From contig JAUSED010000005.1 of the NCBI GenBank assembly GCA_030650425.1, positions 78,932 to 142,931 on the forward strand: a stretch of 64,000 bases of DNA, in the 5' to 3' direction. Under the pieces are notes generated by a model that had not been told where the DNA came from, ran no database searches, and worked only from the letters and a program-made list of their open reading frames with translations. This document shows positions 291 through 63,998 of this stretch, piece by piece (position 1 is the first letter of the stretch; the number at the start of each line of letters is the position of its first letter). The position numbers and the translations under genes were made by a program. The stretch comes from Candidatus Omnitrophota bacterium (GTDB taxonomy: Bacteria; Omnitrophota; Gorgyraeia; Gygaellales; Profunditerraquicolaceae).

Positions 291-3200
291 AAGTCCGGCC
301 TGATAAAATCATTAAAACATAAGCCGTTTGTTATCGAGGTAATCGGAGAAAGAGGGTCTTTTTATAAAGAGGCGGCTCTTTTCTTGACGTGCCTTTTGGG
401 AGCGCGGCCTTTTAACACAGGCTGGCATGCGCGCGCGGCAGTATCTTTATTGTTGAAAGCTATTATGGAAGGCGCGAAGGTAGACAAGAATGATACAAAA
501 GCTGTAGCCGAACTTATGGAAAAATTATTAGAATTAATAGACCGCCTCAGGGAGCCGGTAGTAATCGGCGGCATTGTTACAACCGCTAAGAATGGGAATG
601 CGGTATTGGCTTATCGCGATGAAATTAAATTAGTTACTGACGCCTTAGGCCTCCAGCTTCATAGATTGGTTAATAGCCTGGAAGTGAGCGCGGTAATTGA
701 TGAATTCATAAACAGCGTGGTTAATGGTACTATTGTTTCAGGCCGATACTCAGGCATAATTTTATATACCTCAAAACCGTCTAAACGAAAGGACTCGCTA
801 AAACTCGCGCTCTTGGCTCCTGCGGAAATACGCGCGCAGAGGTTGGGCTGTTCTGTAGAAGATATCAACAAGATAGACAAAAATACAGGTATGGGTGAGG
901 ATTTAAATTATTCCGATGGCATCCTATATATATCAACCGATGATCTTAGCCCGCGTCAGGCCTATCGCAAGGCGCTCGCTATTGTAAGAAAAGAGTTAGT
1001 TAAAGAGTCTTCGCCGCAATCTTCCACCAAACCTCTTTCATCCAGCCCTGCCAGTTCCCCGGTAGAATACGAAAGTAAGCCAGTGGTTTCAGGCGATATT
1101 TCCAGATTGCGCGGTTATTGGTTTATGGAAGCGCCGCGGGAGTATCGAAGGAACGCCCTTCTTTTCGCGGAGAATCACGATGAGCGTCCCGCGCTTGATG
1201 CCTTTAAGAGTATGGAAAAGGCAGAGGCCGCCGCTGTTATTATTCTATCAACAGAGGCGCATATGCTTATCCCGCTTGCCCAAATATACGGGATAAAAAT
1301 GCCTGTTGGCGCGCGCACGGAAATGATGAAATCCCCGGACGCGGGCATTTATCGTTTTAACTATCCACAGCGCCAAGAGGCTGACTTAAAAATAATGTCT
1401 TTCTTTGAACAGGTGCTTCCTATTTTTAGCCAGTCGGTTTTTAGTAAGGGCGATTTATACAGCGCTAAATTAGCTTATCCGGAGGTACATTCTTTAAGAG
1501 GGCTATTTCCGGTGGTGCGCCATTTGCAAGGAGCAGGCGACACAATAGCGGTGATTAATTATTCAGATGGCCGAGAGAAAGTCAGGATAGATTTAGCCAA
1601 AATTTTTGGTTATTATCCCAATCAGGGATTGGCAATTTTAACGCGTCAGCCCAAACTGCGCTATACCAAGAATGTCACTCTTGAATTTAAAGAACCGCGG
1701 ATAGAATTCTCTTTCGGCCCTTACGGCTATGCGATTTTAGGGTTTAGCTCCAGCTCGCCGTTGGAAGAGGAATTCGTATCTCCTACTTCTATGGAGCTTA
1801 ATCCTCACAACTCTTTCTACGGGCAAAAAACGATGATTGATGGCGTGCAGATAGATAAAGTTGTAGCAGCGGGCTTGAATAATTATATACAGGAAAAAGC
1901 ATTAAATACCGCTGACAAAGATAGATTGACTTTTTCTATTGATGGTGAGGCCTTGACGTATGAAATGGTTAAGCTCAAAGAGAGGGTTTTAGCCATAGAC
2001 ACAAGATTAAGCAGTTTGAACATAAAAGAAGCCTTAGCTGATTTATTAATCACAGGCTTAGAGGACGTAGCAGACTTTAATATAGAACAGCTGCCTTTTT
2101 GCTTACATTTTACACTACTTGAGAAATCCCGTTATCTTTTTGAATCTTTACCCGCGCATAATTTCGCAGGTATTAATAGGGGGATACTCGCGTTCACTAA
2201 CCCTCACGCCAGAGATGTTCTTTTGAGGCTGGGATTATGGCATATCTTGCATATTAAGGCAACAACCAAAGGCAGATTGCATGACGGCATTATGAGGCTT
2301 AGGGATGTCGGTGTTGCTAAGAGGTTGATCAAGGAAAGCCGGCTGGGAAGTATCAAAAGATTTATGGCCGCGGTTGAACGAGATGGAGTATTATCGGAGA
2401 ATGCGTTCTTGTTGAATATTCTAAAGGCTTTTTCGACGGAAGAGAAGAGCCCGCAGGATAAAGTGGCTGGTATAAGAGAAAGTATGCGTTGTGATCTCTT
2501 AAATGAACGTCTAAACGCGTTACAAGAAGCAGCTGATAATAATTTAGCAGTTTATCTTGTAGATGATTTATTAGTTTTGCTCCGCGAGAAAGAAGAGCCG
2601 GCCAGGTATAATTTACGCACGCAAGAGGGTAAAGATTGGTATCACGTTAAAATGAATGCTATTTGGCTGTTAGGTAAATTAGAAATATTTCAGGTTGGAA
2701 TAGAAAAAGCTAGGGAGGTCTTGGCCCTTATGCTTGCATTTGGCCTAAGGAGCCCCGCGCCCTGCGTTCATGTCTCAGCTATACTTTCTATTGAATCACT
2801 GGAAAAGAAGGCAAAGGCTTGGCTTAAGCAGGAAGAGGAGAAAGATACATTACTTCCGGGGGCATTACCCGAAGGTGGAGCGGTATCGAGCCCTGTTGAG
2901 GAGGAAGAGATTTTCTTAAGGGAAATTCTGGAAGAGTCTTGTCAAATGGGCTATACGCAGCGGGAGCGCGAGATTTTACAGAGCGCGGCAGAATTTATTT
3001 CTTCAGAATATCAAGGTAAAAGTTTTAAATCTGGGGAGACGTATTTCCATCATGCCTTGGCCGCGGCCAAGACGCTTTTAGGCTGGAGAGCCGATATAAA
3101 AATCGCCGTGGCGGCGTTTCTGCATAAATTAGACCCTGAATCAAGGAAAAGGCAGGAAGGCCGGCTGAAAATTAAGCATTTAGAAAGAGAAGAGGTTGAT

Positions 3201-6200
3201 CAAATTATCGGTATGGTTGAGCGTTTAGAAAACATTGAACAGCGCTGGCCGTATTTGGGCGGGACCATCGTTTACTTGAAAGGCAATAGAAGCGTGCGCC
3301 GTTACCAGAATGCCGTTATGCAATTATGCCGGGATTATGAAACGCTTCTTTTGGTTTACGCGGATAAATTACAAAGCCTGCCCAAGGCCGCGACCTTTAA
3401 GGAAAAAGAGTACCGTTTCCAGGAAATAGTGGATATTTATATGATGCTGCCAGCCCGCTATAACGATTATAGCATGTTTGAAAAACTTAGAAACAAGGCC
3501 TTTGCGATATATGTGCCAGAGGCGGTTTTAGCTATTGAAGGGGATGCCCAAAATAAAGGAATACGCCAAAAGACTTGGGGGCTTTCTTTCCAAGAAATGG
3601 AGCAAAAGCTGAGAGAACTTTCCGGAGAGATCGCTATTTTATTAGAGGCAGGCAACATTCAGGCGGAAATTAAATCGCGCGTAAAGAGCGCATACGGCAT
3701 GTTTGAAAAAATATCCAGCGGAAGAAGGGTAGAATATAATAATTTTGAGGCATTAAAAGATATTTTGGGAACACATATTATATCCGCAAGCGTGGATGTT
3801 ATTTATAATCCCATCATGGTTTGGCTGCGCAAGAAAGGATATAGTTTTAGCGTTGATCAAAAATCAAAATTCAAAAAAGGGTACGAAGCCATTCATATTG
3901 ATGTGGAAATAAACGGTATTGAGCAGGCGAAGGCCCCTCTGCCCTATGAAATCGTTATCTTTAGCCCGGATGATTATAAAAAATATATTTCCGGTAATAG
4001 AAAAGAAAAGTATCTGCCTTTAACTATCCCGCATTACGCTTGGAAATTCGCTGGCTTAGGCGAAAGAGGAGACGAGCAAATTATTGACGCGGATCAATTG
4101 GAATTAAATAGCTTGCCCGCTGAGAATTATCAACAATTGCTTCATTCGTTAAAAAAACTCATTTTTGTTAATTATTTAGAAAAAACACAACGCGGGCTTG
4201 AGGCGCGCTTTATAGAGCTTCCTTACCAAGCCTATCCGGCGGATCTGGCGGCGCATGAGGAGGTGAATAGGTTAGATTCTCAATACAATGGCTTTGTAAC
4301 AATCGCGCTTGAGAAGAGAGGAGAAGAAACCGTTAAAGAAATTTCTCGTCCCCAACCTTTGCAAGAAATCGCTCTTTTAGCAACAGGTATGATTGTCATG
4401 TTGAATCCTCCAGGGGAGGGTTTAGGCAAAGACGTGCTTGGGGTTCTTGAGACTAAAGTGAGCCAACCTCGCACAGTAATGCTTCTGAAGAGGTTGAGAA
4501 ATATGAAAAGTGCAGATTATTGGATTAGGGCGGGAAAGGCGTTAGTGAGCCATAATATAAAAGGCAGAGTTGATAAAGCATATTATGAAAACTTACGTCA
4601 GTTCGCGAGGAGCAAAGGATTTCTGGATATTGCTGAGCTTTTTGAGGCCTTTGGCCGCGGGATCGTTGAAGTTCCATTAGGCAAAAAAGGCGGCTCTTCA
4701 AGCCCCCTGGATTCATCCATTGACCTTGAATTCTTTAAGCATAAATTGCTTCATAGCGAAGGAAGCGTTTCCTTTAAGGGCCTAAATATTTACAGCGAAG
4801 AAGAAATCCGTTATTTTTGGAAGAAGCAAAAGAAATATGGCGGAGTTTTCCAGCAGTTGTCTTTCGCCGCCGATCAGCTAAGCAAGAAAGATAAGATTAA
4901 GGTTCTTTGCGCTGAGGGGGTTTCGCATTTTAAAGACGGCCCTAAATTTTTTACAGCCAGCCGCCTGGCTATTCTTCTGCGCGAGAAAGGCGTTCCTGCG
5001 GAGGCTTTTGACATTTATGTTGTGGATACGGATATGAGCGCGTTGGAACAAGCTGCTTACGGATTTTATGATGCCAGATGGTTCATTGCGCCTAAAGGTG
5101 AAGCGCAAGAGCAGGGTATATTTAAAAAATATTTTGTTGAGTCTAAAAAACCACAGGGGTATCAACTTAAAGAATCTCTACGCTCCCGCATTCATCCGGT
5201 ATATACGCCTTCCCTGATTGAGCTTGAGGAAATTAAAGAAATAGGCCAATTTGATTTGATTACATATTTTTTTAAGGAGTATGTTTTGGAAACAAATCCA
5301 AATGCTCACGGCCAGATCGTAACCAATATTGTAGCCGGACATTTGATCGCGTGCTTAAAGGAAGGCGGTTTTCTCTTAACAACAGCGAATAAATGGTTTG
5401 AAGAATCAAACCTGATGAAACGCCTATCCGTGACTGCGGTTTCCCGTATCCATCGTTCTAATGTGGGCACTTTTAGAACTAAGGTTCTCGCCTATAAGAA
5501 ATTATTCGCAAGCTATAATGATGAATTTTCTAATAAAAAACTCATTCAGCAGTCTAACCAGCTTCGCCATTTAGAAAAAGTTATGGGCCAAAATATCAGC
5601 GTTAAAAGATTCAGGGACGCGTATGAGCTTGCGCGTCAAATCCATCGGGGCAAGAAAAGAGATAACGGAGAACCGTATTTAATGCATCCTATAGCCGTCG
5701 TTGATATTTTTATTGATGTTTTAAAAAGATACCCTCAATATTGGAAGCAATTAGGCTTGGATAGGATTTCTCTGGATGATTCTTATGCCGCTTTGATTGA
5801 CCATGATGTGTTTGAGGAGTATGACTATGATCATGGCCCGTTGAAGAGAAAACAATTAGAGAGCCTGATTAAAATCGAATTAGGGGATGCGGCTTTTGAT
5901 TTTATCATCATATTGACAAATGATAAGGCAAGCGAAGAAGAATATCTTTTGCGCATTATTAGTGATACCCGTTTAATCCTTTCTCTTATGAAGATGGCTG
6001 ATAAACTGCATAGTTTAAAGACTCCCCGTTATTCCCGCGCTGCTGAGAGGCAGAAAGAGAGCCTTTTACAGGCTATTGATTTTATCCAGAAATCTCGGCT
6101 GCCCAAAGAGGTTCCGGGGATTGTCAAATATTTTATTGATGAAATTTGCCGTTTATATTTACCTGAAATTGTAAAAAGCCGCGAAGAGGGGACGCTTAAA

Positions 6201-57200: not shown

Positions 57201-60200
57201 CAGCGTATTGAGTATAGAGATGGGGCCGCCTTGCCGCCGGGATCGCATATCGTCGTCTACGAGGAGAATGGGAATGTAGACGTTGTATATAGCCCATTGT
57301 TTAACAAAGGGTTACAAAACAAATCTTTAGGATATCAAGATGGCCCCGCCGCCGGCACTGAGCCTAATCGAAGCGCCTCGCCGGTTTCAGGAGAGACAGA
57401 ATTATCTTCGGCTTCCGCATGCCTTAGCCCCGCTAAATCCCGCGATAGCCCTAAGGGGAATAAATTCTTAACCTTAACTTCTGCTTTTCTTATTTTTCTT
57501 ACCTCCTTCCATCTTTACCTTAGTCCTTTGCGGGCCTATGCTAACCTTAAGGTTAATCTAAGCGTAATCACGCCCCAAGCGTCACAAGAGCGCCAAGAAA
57601 CCGAAGAGCTTTATAATCAGGCAAGCAGGCATCTAAAGAATCAAAAATACCAAGAAGCGCTGGATCTGTATATAAAGTTAATTAAGCTAGCGCCCAATTA
57701 TATAGATGCCTACATTGACAGGGCCTATCTTTATATCCACCTTGCTCAAGAAGCAAAACAAACAGGTAAAGATACAAAAGGCCTTAGGAAGAACAGAGAC
57801 AATGCAATGTTGGATTTAAAGAAGGCTGAGGCGCTTACTTTAAAGGCCATAAAAGAGAAATACTTTACTAAAGAAGAAGGCAATTTGGTATTTGCCTCAA
57901 TCTATAATCACTACGGATTATTTTATTATCACCTTGAAGGTGATTACAAGAAAGCAGTTAGTTATTTTGAGCAGGCCATAGGCTTAGAGCCGGATAACCC
58001 GATAAATCATAATGATTTAGGGGGAGCCTATTTTAAGTTAGGTAAATACGGCCTTGCCGAAGAGGCATATACTAAGGCAATTGATAAAGCAAAAGCCGCC
58101 AAAGACAATTACGCGGGTTCCCGCATTTACGCAAACCGCGCATTCTTAAGGTTTAAACTCGATAGATATAAGGCGGCAAAGCAAGACATACAGGAAGCCA
58201 CTAGTTTAAATCCCAATTTAAAGAATGATAATAATATCCAAAATTTATTAAAGGAGATTGAATTGAAACTTCAAGAGCGAGAAGGGGTTATTGATTTGTC
58301 TTATCTAAAACTCAATAACTCCAATATCCTTCAGCAGGCTTCCTCGCCGGTTTCGGAGAATAGAAGGGGACAGTTCTATCGTAACTGTTCATCGGCTATG
58401 GAGATAGACAGAGACGGTCTGGAGGATTCTAAGGAAGCGCTTATCGCGCCTTTGCAACATCCCTTAGGCAGGCATTTATATATAGGTACTGATGAGGAGC
58501 GAGACTTATCTAAATGCAGGCAATTGTTATTTGCAGCTTGTCTTGAACTTAGGATATGGAAGAAGCGATATTATTTTGAGCAAGTTGAAAACAGGATATG
58601 CAAGGATCCTTCGTTTCGGACAAAAATAGGCCTTATTGTCTTATTGCGCGATATCCTGCTTAATTATGACGCTTCTAACGTAACGGTTGCTTTTGTAGAC
58701 AGGCTTGAGGGTATTCCGGAAGAACTGATATCGTTCCTTTTAGATGACGAGATCTTATCAGCTTATTTGAATTATCAAGATGAACTTCGAAAATATAAAT
58801 ACATGGATGATAGGGCTATCGAAACTGGCTTTTTCCCATTTTATTATCTATGGTCAGCGTATAAACGCGGGGAAATGCGTGATGCCAAAGAACTCAAAGA
58901 GAGAGTTGTTAGCATCCTTAAGGGTTTTGGCTATGATAAAGCATTCTTCAAGCTCCTAAATGACTTAGCGCATAAGAAAAAGGCGGATTTTAGCCTTGAT
59001 AGCGGCGCAGACGAATTGCGGGTTTTCTTTAGGGCCTTATCCCGTAAAGATATCGTTGAGATTTTTAGACAGACCTTATCAACTCAGATTCTGCCTTCTG
59101 TTAAAAGGCATAGAGCTTCATCTGTAATACAAGGTACCGCCTCGCCGCTGAAGGAAATTGGATCAGAAACCCAAAGAGAAGCAGCCAGGGGAATGATGGT
59201 CATTGAATTGCCCGTGGATGCCGACTTGGGCGAGATCATAAATCACAAAATTGTATATGTTAAGAATGACGGGAATATTAGCACGATTAATGAAGGAAAT
59301 ACAATTAAACTACTACATCCTGATGGGCTAGAATGGAATCTTAGCTGCAAGGTAAGGGATTATCTAAGAGCTACATTTAGCTTAGATTACTCTCTCCTAG
59401 GATTAAAACCTCATCCCTCAACACTTGGAGCGATATGGGCAATGGAAAGGTATCCTACCAATAATCAGCAAGTCCTTGACGCGGGTTGCGGTGAAGGGGT
59501 TTTCACGATTTTGGCGGCTAATTTAGGAGCGAGTAAGGTTATAGGCGTTGATTTAAAAGATTTCATTATTGGACTCGCAAGAAGAAATGCTGAATTAAAT
59601 CGCTTAACTCATATTATTGAATATCACAAACAGGATTTCACAAAACCGTTACAACTATCTGTAAATAACATCAAGTTTGACAAGATCATAACTAATATAC
59701 CCTGTGGTTATACTTATATGGTTCCATCTTTATTGAGGCTTTATCCGGAAGTCAAAACCTTTATTTGGGCAGGTGATTACGTTCATCAAGAAGGCCGCGA
59801 GTATATCGTGGAGGGATCAGAAGAATATATTAGGGAGATTCAGGCATTAGGATTTCGATTCGTAGAAAAATTGATTATTCCTCAAAGAGGTTTGTTTTAT
59901 CCAGAAATTATTATTTGGAAGTGGGTGACATATATCTTAAAGCGGGAAATTAACGAAGCAGGCGCCGCCTCGCCGCTGGGGAAAAATGATCAAAATATCC
60001 TTATCCCTGAAATTATTTCTGAAGCTATTGCAGAAGAAGTTCAAAGAATGCCGGCTTGGGAACTTTTATCTGTTTTAGATCTCAAAAAGGCCAAGCTACT
60101 TTTTACTAAAAGCGGTCCTAGAGAGCTTACTGTCCACAAGATTAAAGTGCCAAAGCTTGTAAATAAGTATAAAGCGCCAGAGGGTTTAAGTATTCTGCCG

Positions 60201-63200
60201 TATGAACTTTTTGATACGACAGAATTTGAACTTTTATACAATAAAAAAGGATACCTTATCGCGATTTATCCGGTTCTCCCAAACGGATTCCTGATTAAAT
60301 CTGGCGAACGACTCCCTCACTATTTTGATTTTAGTGAATATTATTTTAAAATTCCGGAATTCGGTGATCCGAAAATGATTGAAAAATGGGATGCCTTCGT
60401 AAAGGATGTCGGCAGAGATCGGGAAGCAATACAGGCTTATGAGGATTTAATCGGGATAAAGGGTAAGCTTGAAAGGCGCCCGCGTTGGGTACCTTACATC
60501 TACGCAAATCTTGATTATCGGGATAATTTTCCATTTGCTCGGGCTTTTTACATTGAGATGTTTAGCCGTTTGATTAAAAAAGATGAAATCTCGAATAAAA
60601 TCTCTAGAGACATAATCCGGTCTATTCTTCCTGTTTTTCCGACTGTTTACCATCCGGGATCCCATTTATTGGATGATTGGAAATACATTTTAGCTGTTAC
60701 CAGGCGTCTTGATATCCAAAAAGACCATGATATTTTGGTTGTTGGCCCGGGGAATGGCCTTGACACTTGGTTTGTTTCTCGGCAAACAAGGCGGAAAATT
60801 TATGTTGCGGGAATTAATCCTTTGGAAGTTGCCAATACCAGGGCTGTCGCAAAAATTGCCGGGTTTAAGATAGAAGCCAGGATTTACGACAACATTATTT
60901 CTAAAGACGGCGTGACTGTCTTTAATAAGAGATTTGATCGGATTATCTGGAATATGCCCACATATTATCCGGTTGCCCCTAGAATCCGGGAAAGCCTTGA
61001 AGAATGGGAAGATAATGATTACGACGGTATGATCTTAAGGCGTTTTGCCGGAGGCCTTCCATTACTTCTTAAACCAAATGGAATTGCTTTGGTTTGGAAT
61101 TCCGCTGCCGGAAAACTTTTAGATGAGGTTGAAGAAATCTTAAAAGCAAGAGGAGCGCTAGATGTGGCAGTCGAAAAATACCCGGGTATGACGTATTTAG
61201 CCAATATCGAAATGGGCACGGAAACCATTCCTACCGCGCTTTACTTTATCCGCAAGGGAAAAAATCCGGATGCAGCAAGCGCCTATTGTGTCAGTTCGCC
61301 GCTGAAAGAAATAGTTGGAGCGACGGTGGTGACGCGAGGCGCCGCCTCGCCGGTTTCGGGGGGAATATTCCTAACTATATTATGGCCTAAAGACGGTAAT
61401 ATCTTTAATGCGCTCAAAATCTCTGTCATTAGTAGCGATATTCCTAATCTTGCGGATTCTCATAAGAGCAAGATTGAGGGCATCGTTTGTCAACAAGCCG
61501 GATTGCTTAATGATCAATTGGGCAGTATCAAAGACACTTTCATTCAGCGGCCATATCTTGATGTTCAGTTTAGGGATACTATTTATGGCTATATGACACT
61601 TACTGAGTTCTTTGGTTATTTGCGGATGGGATTTAAGGTAGGAGACAGCTTTATGGGAGGATATATTGTAGATTTCTATGGTTTCGGCAATCATAAGACG
61701 ATGCAGAAGCTCAGCGACTACAATAACAGAAGTATAAGCAATTATTTCTTTTTGCTCGCAGCGCTGAAGAAAATTGGTGGCGTTATCATTGATGCCCAGA
61801 AAGTGGTATATAAATATATTGGAGTCAACGAAGATTTTTTTACCGGATTTGACTTTGGCGAGCATCTAATTATTCAAAGGGCTAAAGTTAGGGGATTCAG
61901 CAAGTATCTTAGCAATGCCGCGTTTAATATGTATGATAGCGCGAGTAACTTCAGTGGTGGTTTTAGGCAACTCAAACCTTATTTCTATCCTCTGATGTTC
62001 GGCAAGGGGAACCTTGGAGAGCGGGCGAATGACCCCTCGTTCATAAATTCCCAGTATAGTCTTAGTCATATTTTTTCTCCTTCTAAAAAAGTATACCACG
62101 CTCTTAACGGGGTTGTCAAGAATATTAGTCTTGCCGCCTCGCCGATAAGGATCTCTCCATTTCTCAGTGACATATTTAGAATGTTTCATATGTTTGAGGT
62201 AAATGAATCTATTTTAAGCGAAGACGGGAAAGAGGCGCAGCAGTGGGTTAAGAAAATCATTGGCACAATGCAGAGGCCCCCTGTCGGCCTTATTACAAAT
62301 AATAATGCAGAAAAGCTCATAGCGCTTATGCCTAATCCACGGAAAATATCTCTCGGTGGTTGGTTTGATCTTAGCAGCCTCAATTTTGGAAGCGATGATG
62401 AATTTGGCTTTGGTTGTTTAAGGCCTTGCCCGCATTGTTCAGAAGGGAATACAAGAGCGCGGGTAACAAATCGCACGCTGCCGCCTGCAATAAAGCTTAT
62501 TGAAGAGATGCGCAAGGAAGGCCAGCAAGATACGTTAAGAGGCCTGAAAACTTATCCCGGAAGGTTTCTGATCCAAGGGTGGAATAACACCGACCTTTTC
62601 TATTGGTGTGATCCTTTCTTTAGAGTCTATTTAGACGGCCTTATTGAATTTATCGCGCGTCATTACAAAGATAGAAAATTCCGCCTGCGGATAGCCACAA
62701 TCGGCCCAAACATAGATGACTGGCGCGCATTTATCGTAGCAAAGAGTATTGACAATCTGGTGCTTCAATATCCTGAGTTAAGAAATAATATATTTAGTCT
62801 ATCCTTGCATTTGGCCTTATTTAGCACCAGAGGGTTTGATTATAATACTATCTCTGCTTTGTATGAGCGCAAGATAAATCCACAGCGGCTGGCTAAGGTT
62901 ATAGATAACTATGTGGCCCGCTACGCAGCTATTATTGGCGTTCTCAAGAATACGCTAAGAACGGTCAAAGTATTTCTGTCAAATGAAAGCAGTGAATTTG
63001 ACTCTCTTACGCTTACTGTATTAGATAGGGTCTTAGAGAGGGTCAATATCAGTGGTGGCTTAAAACAGAAGATTATTGATGGAGTAGCTGCAAGAGAACT
63101 AAACAGTGATGTAATGACCCCGTACGGCTTTACTGTAAAAAGCGCTAACATTACGCCATCCGGCCACCGGGGGTTTGATTTTGTAATTGGGTTATTCAAG

Positions 63201-63998
63201 CTTGCAGGCAGATGGAAAGAAGCTGAACGTTACAAGAGGGCTCAAGCAGTAATGAACTTCGCTCCATACCGCAGTAATTATGTCCCAGAAGATGGGTACC
63301 CTCAAACCATAATTTTACCGGGAGAAAGAATTATTGTTCAAAACGAGAAAAGAGAAATGTTTAAATTACCTCTGCAACAACTCGATCCTGATGCTGAATT
63401 TCTTGCCCGCTACGGACTACCTGACAAAAAATCTATAACTAAATATTTATCTTCAAGCCCATTGGCCGAAGTCGCCGCCTCGCCGGTGATAAACAGGCAA
63501 TCCATAACTTATGAAGAATTTGCCGATGATAAACTAGTCAGATTATTACAAAGCGCATCAGAAGAAGAAGTATGGGAGGGCATAATTCAATCCTTAGAAA
63601 AGCCAAGTCTCACTAAGAAAGAGGTGTCGGTAATTTTTGAGAATATTGTAAAGATATGTTATATGGAATATGGATATTACAGGTTCTCCGGTTTTTACTC
63701 TAAGGAGAAATTCCGCGAATTTTTTAAGAGGCTATTAGCATTTAAAGAGGAAATAACCGAAAGGATATTTGTAAATGAAGAAATTAAAATTCTATTCAGG
63801 AAAAGAATTGAAATTCTGAACAAAGTTTTAGATCTATCTGCGGCCGTTCCTTATGAGGTAATTCACTACCAAAGAGAGGATAGGATCATTCCTAAAGACA
63901 CCGATGGTTATTCTTTACCTTTAGCATTTTTAAGAATAATAGCTTTGACTATTTACGATACGTTGAAGGTTAATTTGACAAATAAGGTGGTTGCTATG
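3..63998 (+). CDS. Giant uninterrupted ORF, partial at both ends (21,332 codons in window), encoding a multi-module signalling/regulatory mega-protein
   Basis: The frame with codon starts divisible by 3 has no stop codon in the window. The ORF track lists ATG-to-stop ORFs in the other five frames but none in this one, as expected if it is never closed. Recognisable protein motifs occur in this frame from the first to the last kb, and the terminal 2 nt are left over as expected. The true gene is therefore longer than 64 kb. Confidence 0.85.
3030..3500 (+). other. Degenerate HD-like domain (RelA-type, HD dyad replaced by HK)
   Basis: ETYFHHALAAAKTL...AAFLHKL aligns to EPYIxHPLxVA...ALLHDV of RSH hydrolase domains but lacks the Asp of the HD dyad. 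It lies immediately upstream of the synthetase domain. Confidence 0.3.
3675..4060 (+). other. RelA/SpoT-type (p)ppGpp synthetase (nucleotidyltransferase) domain
   Basis: SRVKSAYGMFEKI...FEALKDILGTHIIS...KGYEAIHIDVEI...PYEIVIFS matches RPKHIYSIYRKM...FDVRAVRIV...GYQSIHTVV...VEVQIRT of RelA/SpoT synthetase domains. Confidence 0.55.
5607..6030 (+). other. HD domain of the SpoT/Mesh1 (p)ppGpp-hydrolase type with an intact HD dyad
   Basis: YELARQIHRGKKRDNGEPYLMHPIAVV...ALIDHDVFEE...LMKMADKLHSLKT matches AHxGQxRxSGEPYIxHPLxVA...LLHDVVED...KLADRLHNMRT. Confidence 0.65.
7311..7410 (+). mobile_element. MITE/REP-like nested palindromic element inserted in frame (copy 1)
   Basis: A perfect 11-bp inverted repeat gtcattgcgag (7329-7339) / ctcgcaatgac (7390-7400) encloses a perfect 27-nt palindrome, cgaagcaatctcg a cgagattgcttcg (7352-7378). 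The encoded peptide is R/C-rich (PIVSLRANEVSEAISTRLLRRCAPRND), unlike the flanking protein. A related copy lies 0.8 kb downstream. Confidence 0.55.
8114..8222 (+). mobile_element. MITE/REP-like nested palindromic element inserted in frame (copy 2, about 70% similar to copy 1)
   Basis: Outer perfect 11-bp terminal inverted repeat gttgcgaaatg (8114-8124) / catttcgcaac (8212-8222). Inner repeats cgtcatcctgag (8133-8144) / ctcagaatgacg (8190-8201) and cgaaggatctcg (8150-8161) / cgagattcttcg (8169-8180). Same architecture as copy 1: GTCAT..GAGCGAAGCGAAG.AATCTCG...CGAGATT.TTCG...CTCAGAATGAC. The encoded peptide is FRHPERSEGSRYRRDSSAFGLRMTQ. Confidence 0.55.
10970..11340 (+). other. Domain of unknown function, copy A of an internally duplicated module
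   Basis: PKLSLGLPMVIKSFHNLDEIRYLQEMAGNFELQFCVVSPKRTPYPLLIFSKEL...RFVPFA is clearly homologous to 31540-31870 (LELGLLMATKPFLNLREVRNIQELAGDFELQFTVIFPKGARHPLVVFSREL...RFVPFA). Both copies are followed by HTH domains. Confidence 0.5.
11440..11620 (+). other. LuxR/GerE-type HTH DNA-binding domain
   Basis: TDRELEIWRLWAKGVDREAIGKALNEGERFIKRVISKIITKFNISKRGQIAHF matches the LuxR C-terminal pattern LTxRExEVLxLxAxGxSNKEIAxxL.ISxxTVKxHxxNIxxKLxVxNRxxA. Confidence 0.5.
11925..12060 (+). other. Second LuxR-type HTH
   Basis: LSEREKKILWLFIAGYNPKAIALTLSLPEGILLSDILFAMKQKL. Confidence 0.4.
16560..17440 (+). other. TPR repeat tract followed by a TM helix (17455-17520)
   Basis: Repeated motifs such as W..LG..YY..GD...A...Y..A and A.Y.LG.I.F.QGK.DEA; then LPMLFVGLVLFIIAGISAG. 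Confidence 0.5.
18703..18747 (+). repeat. 17-bp near-perfect inverted repeat (hairpin) within coding sequence
   Basis: ggacacaatccttaatt (18703-18719) is complementary to aattaagtattgtgtcc (18731-18747) with one mismatch. It is followed by the tandem cctggaattc ctggaattc. Confidence 0.5.
18785..19150 (+). other. CheD-like (chemoreceptor glutamine deamidase family) domain
   Basis: GGRFVGCTACLFWDNNAGIHGFLHLFP resembles the CheD signature LGSCVAVCLYD...GGMNHFMLP. Confidence 0.3.
20100..20400 (+). other. Possible GNAT acetyltransferase fold
   Basis: IQEESLYGKGYVNEILFWI resembles the acetyl-CoA-binding motif A (Q/RxxGxG/A). Similar weak GNAT-like segments occur at 18200-18500 and 38390-38770 (RHNGYGIKIFRTAIKAL). 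Confidence 0.25.
20545..21040 (+). other. GGDEF diguanylate cyclase domain (GGEEF active-site motif)
   Basis: DLLTGAYNRRYLDE...[26 protein letters not shown]...FRYGGEEFCVI...VTVSIGV...ADQALYKAKENGRNRV contains all the GGDEF hallmarks. Confidence 0.8.
22290..22830 (+). other. Protein-kinase-like fold (atypical)
   Basis: FADSKPENVIIHH resembles the catalytic loop HRDLKPENILL, and the downstream IDMDN sits in the DFG position as in atypical or aminoglycoside-type kinases. Confidence 0.3.
24780..25240 (+). other. TPR repeat tract
   Basis: LNDFGAICLDQGRYSLARILFEVGL...HFQLGYVSYLLGEFNLAFAYFQTAKRLG...LGDFDNALKEFQEMMQAG. Confidence 0.5.
27500..27620 (+). other. HExxH zinc-metallopeptidase-like motif (HEYVH at 27526-27540)
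   Basis: VVRIIIHEYVHYYSFYSP...AEVFAETIVEMIY. This is a minimal gluzincin/ImmA-like signature, weak on its own. Confidence 0.25.
29220..29960 (+). other. Sigma-70 family module (region 2 and region 4-like)
   Basis: GLIKKIIASYKVT...LEDAAIFGAKIAALKYHPERGVKFMTFAWNVIKHEI matches region 2 (LVxSIAKRY...[37 protein letters not shown]). The C-terminal segment ...DQFGFSIVAKQRGIKRQTVTKAYYLVLATLR resembles region 4. Confidence 0.55.
30229..30480 (+). other. Low-molecular-weight phosphotyrosine phosphatase/ArsC-like domain (CxGNxxRS P-loop)
   Basis: GGIKVVFLCNGNRWRSAAMYLW matches the LMW-PTP P-loop V(L/C)FVCxGNxCRS. Confidence 0.4.
31540..31870 (+). other. Domain of unknown function, copy B of the duplicated module (see 10970-11340)
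   Basis: See copy A. It is followed immediately by the XRE HTH array. Confidence 0.5.
31995..33105 (+). repeat. Tandem array of about seven XRE/Cro-C1-type HTH units (about 160 nt each), two of them near-duplicate
   Basis: Units such as LRQIREKMGLSQKELVNRLGFLNLSAITFYEIGTVKMPLDFLNRI. LLQELRESLGYTPAKLAKVIGYTEVDILHWENAEAWIPSGVLRDIRKRVMPERLRQIREKM (32150-32340) is paralogous to LLKALREFLGYRAEKLARELGKGYTEEGILRWEEGKEWIPRGVLKEIRERLIPLRLRQIRKEV (32640-32810). Confidence 0.6.
33645..34200 (+). repeat. Three tandem repeats (about 60 aa / 185 nt each) of an uncharacterised W...GFL.W..AVKA.G..P motif
   Basis: WPLELFLSQLKTASKILGTNSSTAFLRKYRKIRRAFLFLREKGFLSDWNSAVKATGGQPAFR / WTKEIFLKQLKNAIKESGTSASWVIKDKYRKIYRAYLLYGIEWGFLNWASAVKACGAKPHLR / IIKTRKIFLYRLRQVFADLGTTSSREIKKRYPQLFISFIFCQEEWGYLDWSSAVRKTGNQPIS. 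Confidence 0.6.
35330..35900 (+). other. TPR repeat tract
   Basis: AEQLLNDGQYAEAIKLFKQVV...AKAYFISGKEHYLRGNYRRAINYFRKVLDV. Confidence 0.45.
36040..36700 (+). other. Second sigma-70-like module (region 2-like plus region 4-like HTH) ending at a junction motif
   Basis: HLWLVKLAAIRYL resembles LRLVVSIAKRYL, and FQGLSMEFITRRTELNEKEINQYLKQGGQEIQSL is an r4-like HTH. It is paralogous to 33370-33560 (LALNHEDMDNIIRLTGLTQEEIDRHLIEGGEKIQKISGL). Both end in xSSPV / SASPV. Confidence 0.35.
38865..38876 (+). repeat. Junction motif GCCGCCTCGCCG, exact copy, in phase (AASP)
   Basis: Exact 12-mer. Context PAASPVLGK. Confidence 0.9.
40960..41530 (+). other. Cluster of about 5-6 predicted transmembrane helices
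   Basis: Long hydrophobic runs such as WLSIFPAALFWAGYYLF, VIILASIALIGLTTIVF, IVGTTAVMRAIMVGSRTFLFSGIYFFSMIIFSALCSVFIL and FLVFMGAFFISDIVAMF. Further TM clusters lie at about 15440-15540, 19350-19500, 19770-19850, 38960-39070, 49020-49130, 49490-49620, 54640-54790, 56370-56860 and 57460-57540. Confidence 0.5.
41823..41834 (+). repeat. Junction motif GCCGCCTCGCCG, exact copy, in phase
   Basis: Context PAASPLAEE. Confidence 0.9.
43565..44400 (+). other. Radical SAM core domain (CX3CX2C plus GGEP)
   Basis: IITSKCNLQCAPCIAQ gives CNLQCAPC = CX3CX2C, and FVGGEPSLYG is the SAM-binding GGE motif downstream. Confidence 0.5.
46283..46980 (+). other. Calcineurin-like (PPP-family) metallophosphoesterase fold, partly degenerate metal ligands
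   Basis: VLVIPDIHCQY...IQIGDVISRGPE...RLLGSHELL...VVHAGV follows the DxH(x)nGDxxDRG(x)nGNHE pattern, with D to S in GDxxD and N to S in GNHE. Confidence 0.45.
48150..48440 (+). other. Two helix-turn-helix motifs
   Basis: WESQRRLAEEIGISEMTISNYLRRI and LKEWGIKELAALFGKTPHSIRQALPAINKRL. Confidence 0.4.
49310..49660 (+). other. M48/HtpX-like membrane zinc metallopeptidase module (HEITH at 49444-49458) with flanking TM helices
   Basis: GNYITINPNQLGNPDFELAKLMGHEITHITLGH resembles the M48 core (...ITvttGLL..L..dELegVlaHElgHi). Hydrophobic helices lie both upstream (49020-49130) and downstream (49490-49620). Confidence 0.45.
49990..50300 (+). other. Class I SAM-dependent methyltransferase fold
   Basis: GKTVIDAGTGDGVLAIMMAK (motif I, VLDxGxGxG), ...VDILVTNIG. 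Confidence 0.45.
50484..50495 (+). repeat. Junction motif GCCGCCTCGCCG, exact copy, in phase
   Basis: Context AAASPVSQ. Confidence 0.9.
53085..53096 (+). repeat. Junction motif GCCGCCTCGCCG, exact copy, in phase
   Basis: Context PAASPLAD. Confidence 0.9.
53205..53650 (+). other. LOG-family (lysine-decarboxylase-like / nucleotide phosphoribohydrolase) domain
   Basis: VAVFCSAR...YTIITGAGPGLMEAVGEGA...KADAFVIIPGGLGTLDELLEALTL...PIILLD matches the LOG signatures GGGxGLMGA and PGGxGTxEEL. Confidence 0.65.
53800..54290 (+). other. Second LOG/DprA-like Rossmann domain, more diverged
   Basis: AVGILGSHSF...ILYRGCQGITEAVDKA...LIFFAGGIGTLDILSDALCL...PIVLVN. Confidence 0.35.
54857..54896 (+). repeat. 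40-nt perfect direct repeat, copy 1 (contains a junction motif; encodes VGATVVTRGAASP)
   Basis: agttggagcgacggtggtgacgcgaggcgccgcctcgccg is identical to 61313-61352 and in the same codon phase. The flanks match for about 8 more nt with 2 mismatches. Confidence 0.9.
56370..56860 (+). other. Cluster of about 6 predicted transmembrane helices
   Basis: LSIIISYALLVPVF, VWIMTFAFLLLAW, IIFYLTAFCPGIFLSLITTLSLATIF, VDIFFSAVAVAFFSYY and AYFILVMLL. Confidence 0.45.
57580..58240 (+). other. TPR repeat tract (about 6 repeats)
   Basis: ELYNQASRHLKNQKYQEALDLYIKLIKLAPNYIDAYIDRAYLY...GLFYYHLEGDYKKAVSYFEQAIGLEPDNPINHNDLGGAYFKLGKYGLAEEAYTKAI...ANRAFLRFKLDRYKAAKQDIQEATSLNPN. Confidence 0.6.
59440..59730 (+). 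other. Class I SAM-dependent methyltransferase fold
   Basis: QVLDAGCGEGVFTILAANLGASKVIGVD (motif I) ...FDKIITNIP (motif IV-like). Confidence 0.45.
59963..59974 (+). repeat. Junction motif GCCGCCTCGCCG, exact copy but out of phase with the ORF (read as APPRR)
   Basis: 59963 is not divisible by 3. The ORF frame reads ...KQAPPRRWGKMIKISF..., whereas the +1 frame would read EAGAASPLGKNDQNIL before hitting TGA at 60008. Confidence 0.8.
60700..61130 (+). other. Class I SAM-dependent methyltransferase fold
   Basis: HDILVVGPGNGLDTWFVSRQTRRKIYVAGINP...FDRIIWNMPTYYP...LKPNGIALVW. Confidence 0.45.
61313..61352 (+). repeat. 40-nt perfect direct repeat, copy 2 (immediately upstream of the antisense toxin cassette)
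   Basis: Identical to 54857-54896. Confidence 0.9.
61380..61865 (-). CDS. vapC: PIN-domain ribonuclease toxin (VapC-like), encoded antisense within the giant ORF and in codon registry with it
   Basis: The 161-aa translation has the PIN hallmarks IFVDSNIFIYHF (N-terminal Asp), TSVIVVAELLHRL (Glu), LLTNDALNLALM (Asp) and C-terminal IATNDRDFERI (Asp). Its start ATG (61863-61865) abuts the TAG stop of the upstream small ORF. It ends at the TAA complementary to the plus-strand TTA at 61380-61382. Confidence 0.75.
   Translation of the reverse strand: MLAKVKSGKKIFVDSNIFIYHFLGINDNATNFLQRCEQKEIIAYTSVIVVAELLHRLMIAETIEIYNISSHKAVSYLKSHPQITKELSKCHIAINSIPKLNIKIWPLNESVFDTAQLIIKQSGLLTNDALNLALMRIRKIRNIATNDRDFERIKDITVFRP
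61866..62069 (-). CDS. vapB: Antitoxin of the DUF104 type that commonly pairs with PIN toxins; start taken at the internal Met preceded by a Shine-Dalgarno
   Basis: MTKTILGIYERGVIRPLSKVPLAEHQRIEIRFELP... matches the MxxxIxAIYENGVLKPLEPLDLPEGTEVRV antitoxin signature. AAGGAG lies 7 nt upstream of this ATG on the minus strand. The track ORF (61866-62189) extends further 5' but without an SD. Confidence 0.7.
   Translation of the reverse strand: MTKTILGIYERGVIRPLSKVPLAEHQRIEIRFELPKTTTEVTRAIIHIKRGIAKILAESPNFSPLNN
62077..62119 (-). promoter_or_regulatory. Sigma-70-type promoter plus Shine-Dalgarno for the antisense TA operon
   Basis: The minus strand reads TTGACA (62119-62114) - 18 nt - TATACT (62095-62090) - tttttag - AAGGAG (62082-62077) - aaaaaat - ATG (62069-62067). 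Confidence 0.6.
62133..62144 (+). repeat. Junction motif GCCGCCTCGCCG, exact copy, in phase (immediately beyond the antisense cassette promoter)
   Basis: Context LAASPIRI. Confidence 0.9.
62400..63200 (+). other. Second CX3CX2C motif (possible radical-SAM-like module)
   Basis: GFGCLRPCPHCSEG gives CLRPCPHC = CX3CX2C at 62415-62438. The domain extent is uncertain. Confidence 0.3.
63474..63485 (+). repeat. Junction motif GCCGCCTCGCCG, exact copy, in phase
   Basis: Context VAASPVIN. Confidence 0.9.

Follow-up and report, generated by a model that had tools for sequence, protein, structure and literature searches.

Introduction

The window analysed here is a 64,000-nucleotide stretch of a Candidatus Omnitrophota genome (contig JAUSED010000005.1 of assembly GCA_030650425.1, positions 78,932 to 142,931 of the forward strand), through which a single giant open reading frame (ORF) runs from end to end. 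A short sequence recurs throughout this ORF, and the question raised by the locus is at which level, DNA, RNA or protein, this sequence acts, and what it may do there. An earlier note on this DNA described the recurring element as a GC-rich DNA motif, and proposed a DNA-level cassette boundary resembling shufflon or attC sites, an RNA signal, or a peptide linker or processing site. The repeated unit is a peptide, [G/P/R]-[S/A/V]-[S/A]-S-P-[V/L/I], with some 70–80 copies at the joints of gene-sized modules, and we consider it very probable that it is a selected peptide junction at module boundaries. The best combined explanation, to which we assign a probability of roughly 45 %, is that of a recognition motif, most likely a processing site, of an archaeovorin-type giant protein.

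A trait that defines the Omnitrophota, and that has no explanation so far, is the possession of giant genes of 20,000–150,000 codons. Such genes and very long proteins are treated by Seymour (2023; PMC10066038), West-Roberts (2023; bioRxiv 10.1101/2023.11.21.568195) and Nielsen and Lui (2026; bioRxiv 10.64898/2026.06.07.730766), the last two with 46 and 916 long proteins, respectively. As stated in the literature consulted, it is undecided whether a giant protein works as one chain or as cut products, and the lack of cleavage points, information on which is missing according to West-Roberts (2023), stands in the way of both structure prediction and interpretation. Whether and where giant Omnitrophota proteins are cut appears as an open question in the two preprints (10.1101/2023.11.21.568195; 10.64898/2026.06.07.730766), which also report peptidase domains to be common. 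Word searches of their text for "motif", and in part for "linker" and "junction", returned no description of a recurrent junction motif, and no paper linking Omnitrophota with polyproteins was found in the literature searched. The gene described here is one of the Omnitrophota giant genes, a known class, and the word searches returned no account of its junction motif.

The motif provides the first concrete candidates for the places where giant proteins are joined, cut or recombined. A motif at module boundaries makes the question testable, as it tells where protein termini should be sought in proteomic data. It further offers a rational way of splitting giant proteins for structure prediction, and a marker for tracing the gain and exchange of modules. 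Cleavage at the motif, if true, would represent a cellular polyprotein strategy at a scale not known before.

The repeated unit is a peptide

In the translated ORF, SP[VLI] is found 84 times, compared to a mean of 14 and a maximum of 24 in 1000 protein shuffles, and the stricter form [AS]SP[VLI] 62 times (mean 2.0, maximum 8 in 1000 shuffles). SP followed by any other residue occurs 49 times, which is background level, and the related strings TP[VLI] and [VLI]PS occur 3 and 12 times. Among the 3- and 4-mers of the ORF, SSP, SPV, SSSP, SSPV and AASP are enriched far more than all others, and there are no further outliers. The positional profile displays conservation from −3 to +2 and weak preferences elsewhere; the motif flanks are richer in small and polar residues (0.34–0.35 compared to 0.28). 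Gaps between sites are bimodal, with an overall median of 266 amino acids (aa): they measure either 100–1000 aa, which is module size, or 8–60 aa where 2–3 copies share a joint.

The motif serine is encoded by TCG, AGC, TCA, TCT, TCC and AGT, and the motif proline by CCG, CCT, CCA and CCC. Two paralogous modules inside the ORF (aa 3514–3838 and 10335–10705, corresponding to nucleotides (nt) 10542–11516 and 31005–32117) share 34–38 % identity, and at their matching junctions Ser-Pro is kept with a change of serine codon (TCG to AGC and TCT to TCA). The use of six Ser codons from both the TCN and the AGY box and of four Pro codons, together with the codon changes between paralogues, means that selection acts on the peptide and not on the DNA. 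The one fixed codon set (GCC GCC TCG CCG) claimed by the earlier note is thus overstated; its GC-rich motif is real, albeit merely the GC-rich subset of a larger peptide family.

Two established types of processing site were considered and rejected as descriptions of the motif. A double-glycine (C39) site of the form G-[AGS]↓ would require a Gly that is found at −3 in 13 of 72 copies, and a signal peptidase site (A-x-A) is incompatible with Pro at +1, which blocks that enzyme.

Position relative to modules and domains

None of the 84 sites lies inside a Pfam best-stretch envelope, where 7.9 would be expected (the envelopes cover 9.45 % of the protein; P ~2e-4), in agreement with the earlier claim that the copies stand between recognisable domains. 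Sites are found 10–62 aa from the edges of GerE, GGDEF, M48, GNAT, LOG and radical SAM domains, and of the TPR array at aa 19201–19400, which has a site 27 aa before and another 48 aa after it. A HMMER scan of 1.84 billion representatives was made with aa 16300–17499 as query; nearly all of the matches listed cover query residues 278–503, which is one methyltransferase module, and the flanking sites are at query residues 275 and 531.

The two paralogous modules mentioned above end in a GerE/LuxR-type helix-turn-helix (HTH) domain. They were called sigma-like before and thought to carry the motif at their ends: both do begin at a junction site, and the second site of each is at the matching internal position. 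The claim of copies before and after a toxin-antitoxin (TA) cassette corresponds to the sites at 31965 and 33543, which bracket an HTH_3/Aca2 module (nt 31998–32877, aa 10666–10959). This module consists of a tandem pair of HTH_3 (XRE) domains with 45 % mutual identity, followed by an Aca2/YdiL-like domain. A triple cluster of sites, likewise noted earlier, is real and spans 54807–54899.

Some units between sites resemble complete proteins, for example in the succession site, transmembrane (TM) helices, GGDEF, site. A hydropathy scan (19-residue Kyte-Doolittle mean of at least 1.6, a scan and not a topology predictor) yields 22 TM-like segments, 8 of which start within 35 aa after a site (about 3 expected by our own arithmetic), so that modules look as if they had kept an N-terminal membrane anchor. 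Examples of TM-like segments are aa 5152–5170, 12576–12594 and 18790–18808. An AlphaFold2 model of the methyltransferase module shared with relatives and both its junctions (alignment A1, 3 sequences) has a mean pLDDT of 33.5, and is unusable for locating linkers.

Junctions in the window

The sites are given below with nucleotide positions in the window and strand. The term exact 12-mer denotes GCCGCCTCGCCG; decayed copies are from the DNA search at up to 2 mismatches to it.

1050–1064, +: junction ASSPV
1749–1763, +: junction SSSPL, TCC AGC TCG CCG form
2883–2897, +: junction VSSPV; an HD_4 domain begins 32 aa later
4695–4709, +: junction SSSPL
6246–6260, +: junction FSSPV
7047–7061, +: junction SSSPV
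7923–7937, +: junction SGSPI
9438–9452, +: junction AGSPI
9525–9539, +: junction SSSPI
10533–10547, +: junction GSSPL, start of the LuxR/GerE-type paralogous module
11415–11429, +: junction TSSPL; GerE domain 11 aa downstream
13617–13631, +: junction SSSPV, TCC AGC TCG CCG form; 23 of 24 nt identical to the copy at 1749
15408–15422, +: junction NSSPL
15444–15458, +: junction GASPI, with a TM-like segment directly after
18048–18062, +: junction FSSPV
18627–18641, +: junction SSSPL
19302–19316, +: junction VSSPV, start of the TM and GGDEF module
21051–21065, +: junction VSSPI; the GGDEF domain ended 11 aa before
23724–23738, +: junction VSSPI
24489–24503, +: junction GSSPV
24627–24641, +: junction VASPV
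27051–27065, +: junction SASPV
28029–28043, +: junction SGSPL
28173–28187, +: junction SSSPL
30156–30170, +: junction SASPI
31023–31037, +: junction ASSPI, with Ser as AGC (TCG in the paralogue); the second LuxR-type paralogous module starts here
31965–31979, +: junction TSSPI, preceding the HTH_3/Aca2 ("TA-like") module
33543–33557, +: junction VSSPV, following the HTH_3/Aca2 module
33609–33623, +: junction QVSPL
36678–36692, +: junction SASPV, CCTCGCCGGTTTCGG form
37656–37670, +: junction VGSPL
37716–37730, +: junction VASPV, then a TM-like segment
38838–38852, +: junction PGSPL, first site of a compound junction; GNAT domain 43 aa upstream
38865–38879, +: junction AASPV, exact 12-mer
40803–40817, +: junction SSSPL
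40881–40892, +: decayed copy AASL (GCCGCCTCGCTG)
41748–41762, +: junction SSSPL
41823–41837, +: junction AASPL, exact 12-mer
41877–41891, +: junction SSSPI
42768–42782, +: junction SSSPL
42834–42848, +: junction SASPL
43380–43394, +: junction AASPV; radical SAM domain 62 aa downstream
46023–46037, +: junction ASSPL
46203–46217, +: junction VASPI
48006–48020, +: junction AASPI
48051–48065, +: junction SSSPV
48927–48941, +: junction SSSPI
49227–49241, +: junction AASPL; M48 peptidase domain 10 aa downstream
49443–49457, +: HEITH zinc-binding motif of the M48-type metallopeptidase module aa 16411–16574, putative candidate for the processing enzyme
49716–49730, +: junction SGSPV; M48 domain 23 aa upstream, methyltransferase homology from 3 aa downstream
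50484–50498, +: junction AASPV, exact 12-mer; the methyltransferase module ends here
50790–50804, +: junction ASSPL, first site of a compound junction
50817–50828, +: decayed copy AASA (GCCGCCTCGGCC)
51573–51587, +: junction ISSPI
53034–53048, +: junction LSSPI
53085–53099, +: junction AASPL, exact 12-mer; the double LOG module begins here
54369–54383, +: junction LSSPV, end of the double LOG module
54450–54464, +: junction NSSPV
54585–54599, +: junction SGSPL
54654–54668, +: junction SVSPV
54807–54821, +: junction VSSPV, in the triple cluster
54835–54899, +: 65-nt compound junction FSSPV-EKTVGATVVTRG-AASPL, exact 12-mer at 54885
55620–55634, +: junction ASSPI
56052–56066, +: junction IVSPV
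56358–56372, +: junction ASSPL, then a TM-like segment
57225–57236, +: decayed copy AALP (GCCGCCTTGCCG)
57372–57386, +: junction SASPV
58338–58352, +: junction ASSPV, 48 aa past the TPR array; 21 of 22 nt identical to the copy at 36682
59136–59150, +: junction TASPL
59964–59978, +: junction AASPL, exact 12-mer; the module in common with the relative L001 starts exactly here (SSSPV in L001)
61291–61355, +: the 65-nt compound junction for the second time, VSSPL-KEIVGATVVTRG-AASPV, with an exact 12-mer at 61341; the L001-shared module ends here
62133–62147, +: junction AASPI, exact 12-mer
63450–63464, +: junction SSSPL, first site of a compound junction
63474–63488, +: junction AASPV, exact 12-mer

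Relatives and module exchange

Close homologues among 5.8 billion proteins are only two partial Omnitrophota proteins, P0001 (69 % identity) and P0002 (63 %), which NCBI names Candidatus Omnitrophica/Omnitrophota; two further loci, L003 and L004, are from Omnitrophota metagenome-assembled genomes (MAGs). Scans of genomes and metagenomes with alignment A1 returned only 5 loci, so the evidence on boundaries across genomes concerns one module, and a viral scan with the same alignment returned none. Among the 5.8 billion proteins (word-indexed), the query nt 37500–44999 (~2500 aa, including the radical SAM start and TPRs) has no match at E up to 1e-5, most of the 1621-aa query from the 3′ end (59136–63998) has no match either, and nt 52800–57599 has one, an unrelated LOG protein without the motif. 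The modules of the window are, on this sequence evidence, largely orphans.

The contig of P0001 (L001, GC 37 %) shares with the window a sole block of 441 aa at 69 % identity. This block starts exactly at the motif (AASPL in the window, SSSPV in L001) and ends a few residues before GSPV/SSPL, and there is no similarity on either side of it. One module thus has unrelated neighbours in the two genomes, which indicates exchange with breakpoints at the motif. L001 contains 6 SPV in 1595 aa (1.0 SP[VLI] expected); the serine codons are TCA, TCG or TCC, the proline codon is always CCG, and three copies read TCC AGC TCN CCG GTN as in the 5′ part of the window.

The motif is conserved in further relatives in altered form. 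L003 (JACQXK010000004.1, a 225-kb Omnitrophota MAG contig) carries a giant ORF with the junction [V/S/A]-S-S-[A/P]-[V/L/I], and reads GASSAV where the window reads AASPL. In its 5562 aa, [AS]SA[VLI] occurs 10 times (1.1 expected) and [AS]SP[VLI] 5 times (0.6 expected), with no preference for TCG-CCG. Hence the proline is not indispensable, and a lineage can shift all of its joints together. The L003 copies lie within 6800–16000, and the first 2280 residues of the part examined have none. In L004, L006 and L007, SPV stands four residues ahead of the shared block, and the ordinary genes on either side of L004, L005 and L007 do not contain the motif. In L002, the locus of P0002, the module is flanked by hydrophobic joints (LSSFPLFLG and LSFVPFLFG), and P-[LF][LF][FLG]-G occurs three times.

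Junction DNA and codon usage

The exact 12-mer GCCGCCTCGCCG is present in 9 copies (starts at 38865, 41823, 50484, 53085, 54885, 59964, 61341, 62133 and 63474), all on the + strand and all in frame, and is absent from 100 dinucleotide-preserving shuffles; the nine identical 12-mers described earlier are therefore confirmed, at their coordinates and as exceeding chance. Allowing up to 2 mismatches, 32 matches are found where 2.8 are expected. Of these, 30 are on the + strand and 29 in the coding frame; the − strand has 2 weak ones, as many as chance would give. The core TCGCCG is counted 41 times on the + strand (36 in frame) and 11 times on the − strand; these numbers, together with the 30 near-matches, bear out the initial estimate of about 38 copies. 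Of the 36 in-frame cores, 35 have V, L or I directly after them and 34 have Ala or Ser directly before them, and 9 of the 13 AASP copies carry the identical 12-mer. Copies had been described as denser and more exact in the 3′ half, which holds: there are 4.8 per 1000 aa beyond aa 12,500 compared to 2.4 before, and all nine exact 12-mers lie from nt 38,865 on.

Codon usage in the motif is strongly biased. Serine is TCG in 62 % of the copies (background 9–12 %), proline is CCG in 65 % (background 28 %), and the three codons upstream of Ser-Pro end in C in 40–56 % (background 17 %) and almost never in G, with no G-ending codon at all at −2 and −1. This bias of third positions is limited to codons −3 to +1, with flanking third positions at background, and regional GC-biased conversion around the junctions is rejected on this ground. 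Given identical residues, copies display excess codon identity at offsets −5 to +1 only. Two DNA forms prevail: TCC AGC TCG CCG (SSSP), which lies mostly towards the 5′ end and is common to the window and L001, and GCC GCC TCG CCG (AASP), which is found only from nt 38,865 onward.

Most motif copies share no identity in their flanks, and parts of the junction DNA are duplicated. The 65-nt compound junctions at 54835–54899 and 61291–61355 are 91 % identical between unrelated flanks and encode SSP[VL]-x3-VGATVVTRG-AASP, with (E/K)(K/E)(T/I)VGATVVTRG as the spacer between two motif copies. Junctions 1749 and 13617 share 23 of 24 nt (D14), junctions 36682 and 58342 share 21 of 22 nt (D4), and three compound joints have AGC CCA TTR ... 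GCC GCC TCG in common (D11). The L001-shared module is followed by one site in L001, and in the window by a pair of sites 17 inserted codons apart. Such likeness between unrelated modules means that junction DNA has sometimes been copied independently of the modules, which fits recombination or conversion at joints.

Extent and class of the giant ORF

Frame +3 is open across nt 3–63998 of the + strand, with 21,332 codons and no stop, and it is open at both ends; the other five frames contain 802–2021 stops each. As the ORF runs off both ends of the window, the gene is longer than the window, and 21,332 codons are its minimum length. The 64 kb of the window come from the interior of an Omnitrophota giant gene, one of the multi-enzyme and regulatory, archaeovorin-like kind. 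Their GC content is ~41 %, with a coding-strand GC skew that is steadily positive (+0.08 to +0.22). No ORF of at least 300 aa ends inside the window in any frame, and the longest open stretch on the − strand measures 242 aa. Self-BLAST of the 21,332 aa yields only 7 weak internal similarities. This near-absence of internal repetition means that the ORF is a chain of mutually unrelated modules; long repeated modules carrying the motif by descent are rejected for the same reason.

Pfam domains found in the ORF are HATPase_c, HD_4, GerE, several TPR arrays (in at least 5 places), GGDEF, GNAT, radical SAM, the tandem HTH_3 with Aca2/YdiL-like domain, an M48 peptidase, two PrmA-like methyltransferases and the double LOG. 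The phylum of the relatives, the ORF length, the domain repertoire and the numerous TM-like segments agree with the class of Omnitrophota giant genes, whose ORFs encode at least 10,000–30,000 aa. As in that class, close homologues are exclusively from Omnitrophota, the stop-free ORF exceeds 64 kb, many TM-like segments are present, and sequences are very poorly conserved from one genome to the next. Of the domains found, HATPase_c, radical SAM, TPR, Lysine_decarbox/LOG, GGDEF, methyltransferase and GNAT appear on the published lists. SecA_DEAD and an N-terminal C39 or S8 peptidase, further features of the class, are not found by Pfam in the window, which is an internal fragment with neither gene end.

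Possible function of the motif

Of the three roles named in the earlier note, a linker or processing site at the peptide level has the strongest support: the peptide is kept across Ser codon boxes, between paralogues and in related genomes, and it stands outside the detected domains and at the ends of homology blocks. The giant gene is a chain of gene-sized, mostly unrelated modules, and the motif probably lies in short polar linkers between them, often in 2–3 copies 8–30 residues apart. Five specified positions in otherwise free linkers, and the lineage-wide shifts between SSPV, AASP and SSAV, suggest that the motif is read by a protein acting in trans, for which it would serve as a linear recognition motif. 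Cytoplasmic-type, gene-like modules seem to fit poorly into a single membrane-threaded polypeptide of over 21,000 residues, and peptidase domains occur regularly in such proteins; a processing protease may hence be the likeliest reader. This protease would cut the giant precursor at the motif into module-sized products, as in a polyprotein. We propose cleavage at the motif tentatively. A more far-reaching version, in which the ORF is a bacterial polyprotein of at least 60 gene-like modules separated at [AS]S-P-[VLI] by a dedicated protease or co-translationally, and in which the joints double as in-frame recombination points, is possible but doubtful. The modules in question would be membrane-anchored cyclases, HTH regulators, methyltransferases, LOG enzymes and peptidases. 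The M48 module with its HEITH motif between two sites may be considered as a candidate for the processing enzyme. This module (nt 49227–49730, aa 16411–16574) is compact, has TM-like segments and an intact HEITH, and is flanked by a junction on both sides.

For the DNA of the joints, we envisage that GCC GCC TCG CCG represents a young junction "haplotype" and TCC AGC TCG CCG an older one. The identical 12-mers would have arisen by copying or homogenisation of junction DNA through recombination at the joints, which may also let giant genes swap modules in frame.

Several observations weigh against a processing site and this history. Most proteases disfavour Pro directly after the scissile bond, and an uncut linker, a target of modification or a binding site would suit the motif equally well. 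A codon bias confined to five codons is only partly accounted for by copying by descent. The tandem LOG/Lysine_decarbox (SLOG) domains (nt 53085–54383, aa 17697–18125; 26 % identical) have no site between them, thus not every domain boundary carries the motif. Of the 10 L003 copies with Ala in place of Pro, 8 use the codon GCG, a hint of some constraint on the nucleotides themselves, and in L003 the shared module is broken in its middle. L005, with a 3770-aa ORF and the module at 35 % identity, is without any SP[VLI].

Alternative explanations

The chain might instead stay intact, with the motif as an uncut peptide junction: a structural linker or cap (Ser-Pro as helix N-cap, domain insulator), a site of Ser modification or a ligand of TPR domains. 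We regard this as rather unlikely in itself, albeit the foremost of the alternatives. It draws on the same location and conservation as cleavage does, and on the small and polar residues of the linker flanks, the TPR arrays at five or more places of the ORF and the TM-like segments beginning soon after sites; Glu is in addition mildly enriched 3–4 residues after the serine, as in S-P-x-E capping boxes. A linker or cap would not demand V, L or I after the proline and a small residue before the serine so strictly, however, and clusters of 2–3 sites 8–30 aa apart make little sense as helix caps. The lineage-wide shifts, from P to A in L003 and from SS to AA in the 3′ part of the window, point to a specific reader, although this may be a modifying or binding protein. 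Examples of modification would be O-glycosylation or phosphorylation of the serine.

A primary function of the DNA, as a recombination joint of 12–15 nt (by microhomology or site-specific) with the peptide being incidental, seems improbable. It could account for the nine identical 12-mers and 30 near copies in one orientation and frame, an arrangement in which recombination between copies keeps the frame. Module exchange between genomes that breaks at the motif, the 17-codon mini-cassette between two window sites in place of the single L001 site, the codon bias at synonymous positions −3 to +1 and the junction stretches duplicated between unrelated modules are compatible with it as well. Yet about half of the peptide copies are written in quite different DNA (such as AGC CCT or TCT CCC), so the DNA is not what is conserved, and L003 keeps the peptide without the TCG-CCG preference. 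A primary DNA function should also place copies in the other two frames. No inverted copies, palindromic arms or inverted-repeat families were found in the 64 kb save one chance-like pair (I6), and Pfam detects no integrase, invertase or transposase in the 21,332-aa ORF at E up to 1e-3, so that the search for a co-encoded recombinase in the window came out negative. The idea of a cassette boundary survives in an evolutionary sense only, with breakpoints at the motif and 24–65 nt duplicated, and DNA recombination is plausible as an evolutionary by-product; a shufflon- or attC-like site is rejected on the grounds of single orientation and frame, lack of palindromes and absence of a Pfam recombinase in the window.

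We judge it very unlikely that the motif acts as an mRNA or ribosome signal, whether as a pause at the UCG-CCG pair, as a 2A-like skip ahead of the proline that would set modules free with no protease, as an RNase site or as an internal start. A pause at module ends might help modules to fold or to insert into the membrane during translation. TCG belongs to the rarest codons in this gene but makes up 62 % of the motif serines, and the codon bias is sharply limited to five codons. Of all peptide bonds, x-Pro is moreover formed most slowly by the ribosome, and 2A sites skip this very bond. On the other hand, CCG and GCC are common in this gene, and a rare-codon pause is a weak candidate for a full explanation with TCG as the only rare codon. 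A 2A-like skip would need ~18 conserved upstream residues, compared to 3 conserved here, and the prevalence of Ala over Pro in L003 without a TCG-CCG bias argues against any mechanism requiring proline. No Met or start-codon enrichment and no Shine-Dalgarno-like sequence is seen near the motif. In 96-nt windows centred on the motif, the GC-corrected residual of the minimum free energy (MFE) is +0.31 ± 0.46 kcal/mol relative to random windows, with no Rfam search made, and the motif core is paired at 0.59 compared to 0.56; an RNA hairpin or other structure, and with it the RNA signal of the earlier proposal, is rejected.

A simple genomic repeat (similar to REP elements, uptake signals or Chi) or an effect of chance and composition has next to no probability. 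The motif is indeed strand-specific as Chi or KOPS are, but the observed counts are reached by no shuffle, the motif is C-rich on a strand with an excess of G, the peptide is kept by different DNA, and the ordinary genes beside L004, L005 and L007 lack it. A repeat present in all frames and orientations is contradicted by the 36 of 41 cores that occupy a single frame of the window.

Comparison with known systems

The closest functional analogy may be the pattern of cleavage sites in viral polyproteins. Viral sites are, for instance, Q↓G for picornavirus 3C, LQ↓[S/A/G] for coronavirus Mpro and G-A↓A for alphavirus nsP2. Both systems would have one ORF of unrelated units, a motif of 4–6 residues at the unit boundaries and a peptidase unit between two sites; the motif also varies by lineage, as do cleavage sites that co-evolve with their protease. 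The present case differs in its cellular DNA genome, in an ORF 10–100 times larger, in being known from sequence alone, in the Pro after Ser, which is an unusual P1′ residue, and in the likeness of the DNA of many copies, which viral sites do not display.

Polyvalent proteins of phages and conjugative elements are said to have been described by Iyer, Burroughs, Anand, de Souza and Aravind in 2017, with embedded metallopeptidases reportedly proposed to process them. They resemble the giant ORF in uniting many unrelated enzymatic and regulatory domains (methylases, peptidases, HTH) in one huge polypeptide, and differ in scale and from the chromosomal Omnitrophota context; to our knowledge, no conserved junction motif is known for them. 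Modular giants of another kind are the polyketide synthase (PKS) and non-ribosomal peptide synthetase (NRPS) megasynthases, in which in-frame shuffling likewise proceeds by recombination at conserved linkers. Their modules are homologous repeats, whereas the modules here are unrelated and the linker signature measures 5 residues.

The attC and shufflon sfx sites share with the motif the presence of short conserved DNA at the borders of exchangeable units. attC sites are imperfect palindromes of 55–140 nt, and shufflon sites are inverted repeats with a dedicated recombinase; the copies described here are direct, in frame and 12–15 nt long, with no palindrome or recombinase found, and are conserved as peptide. 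2A "StopGo" and arrest peptides (SecM ...RAGP, ApdA/ApdP RAPP) have in common with the motif a bond between a small residue and Pro, and would allow several products from one ORF. Such peptides depend on an extended, conserved nascent chain (D[VI]ExNPG↓P, or at least 17 residues), and 2A works on eukaryotic ribosomes. Here only −3 to +2 are conserved, and Pro is replaceable by Ala in L003.

Other long proteins

The 5562-aa stretch of L003 ends at 16687, and another frame of at least 1334 aa begins at 16609, with an overlap of ~80 nt (16609–16687); these may be two consecutive giant ORFs, or the result of a frameshift or assembly error. Two long multi-module proteins were found via the methyltransferase module aa 16574–16830. 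In a cursory analysis, P0013 contains R[AS]ELR[SAK] five times and P0143 contains PGS[EGK] five times, both at module-sized spacing. Lineage-specific junction motifs, such as SSAV, RxELRS and PGSE, suggest a general rule for long modular proteins.

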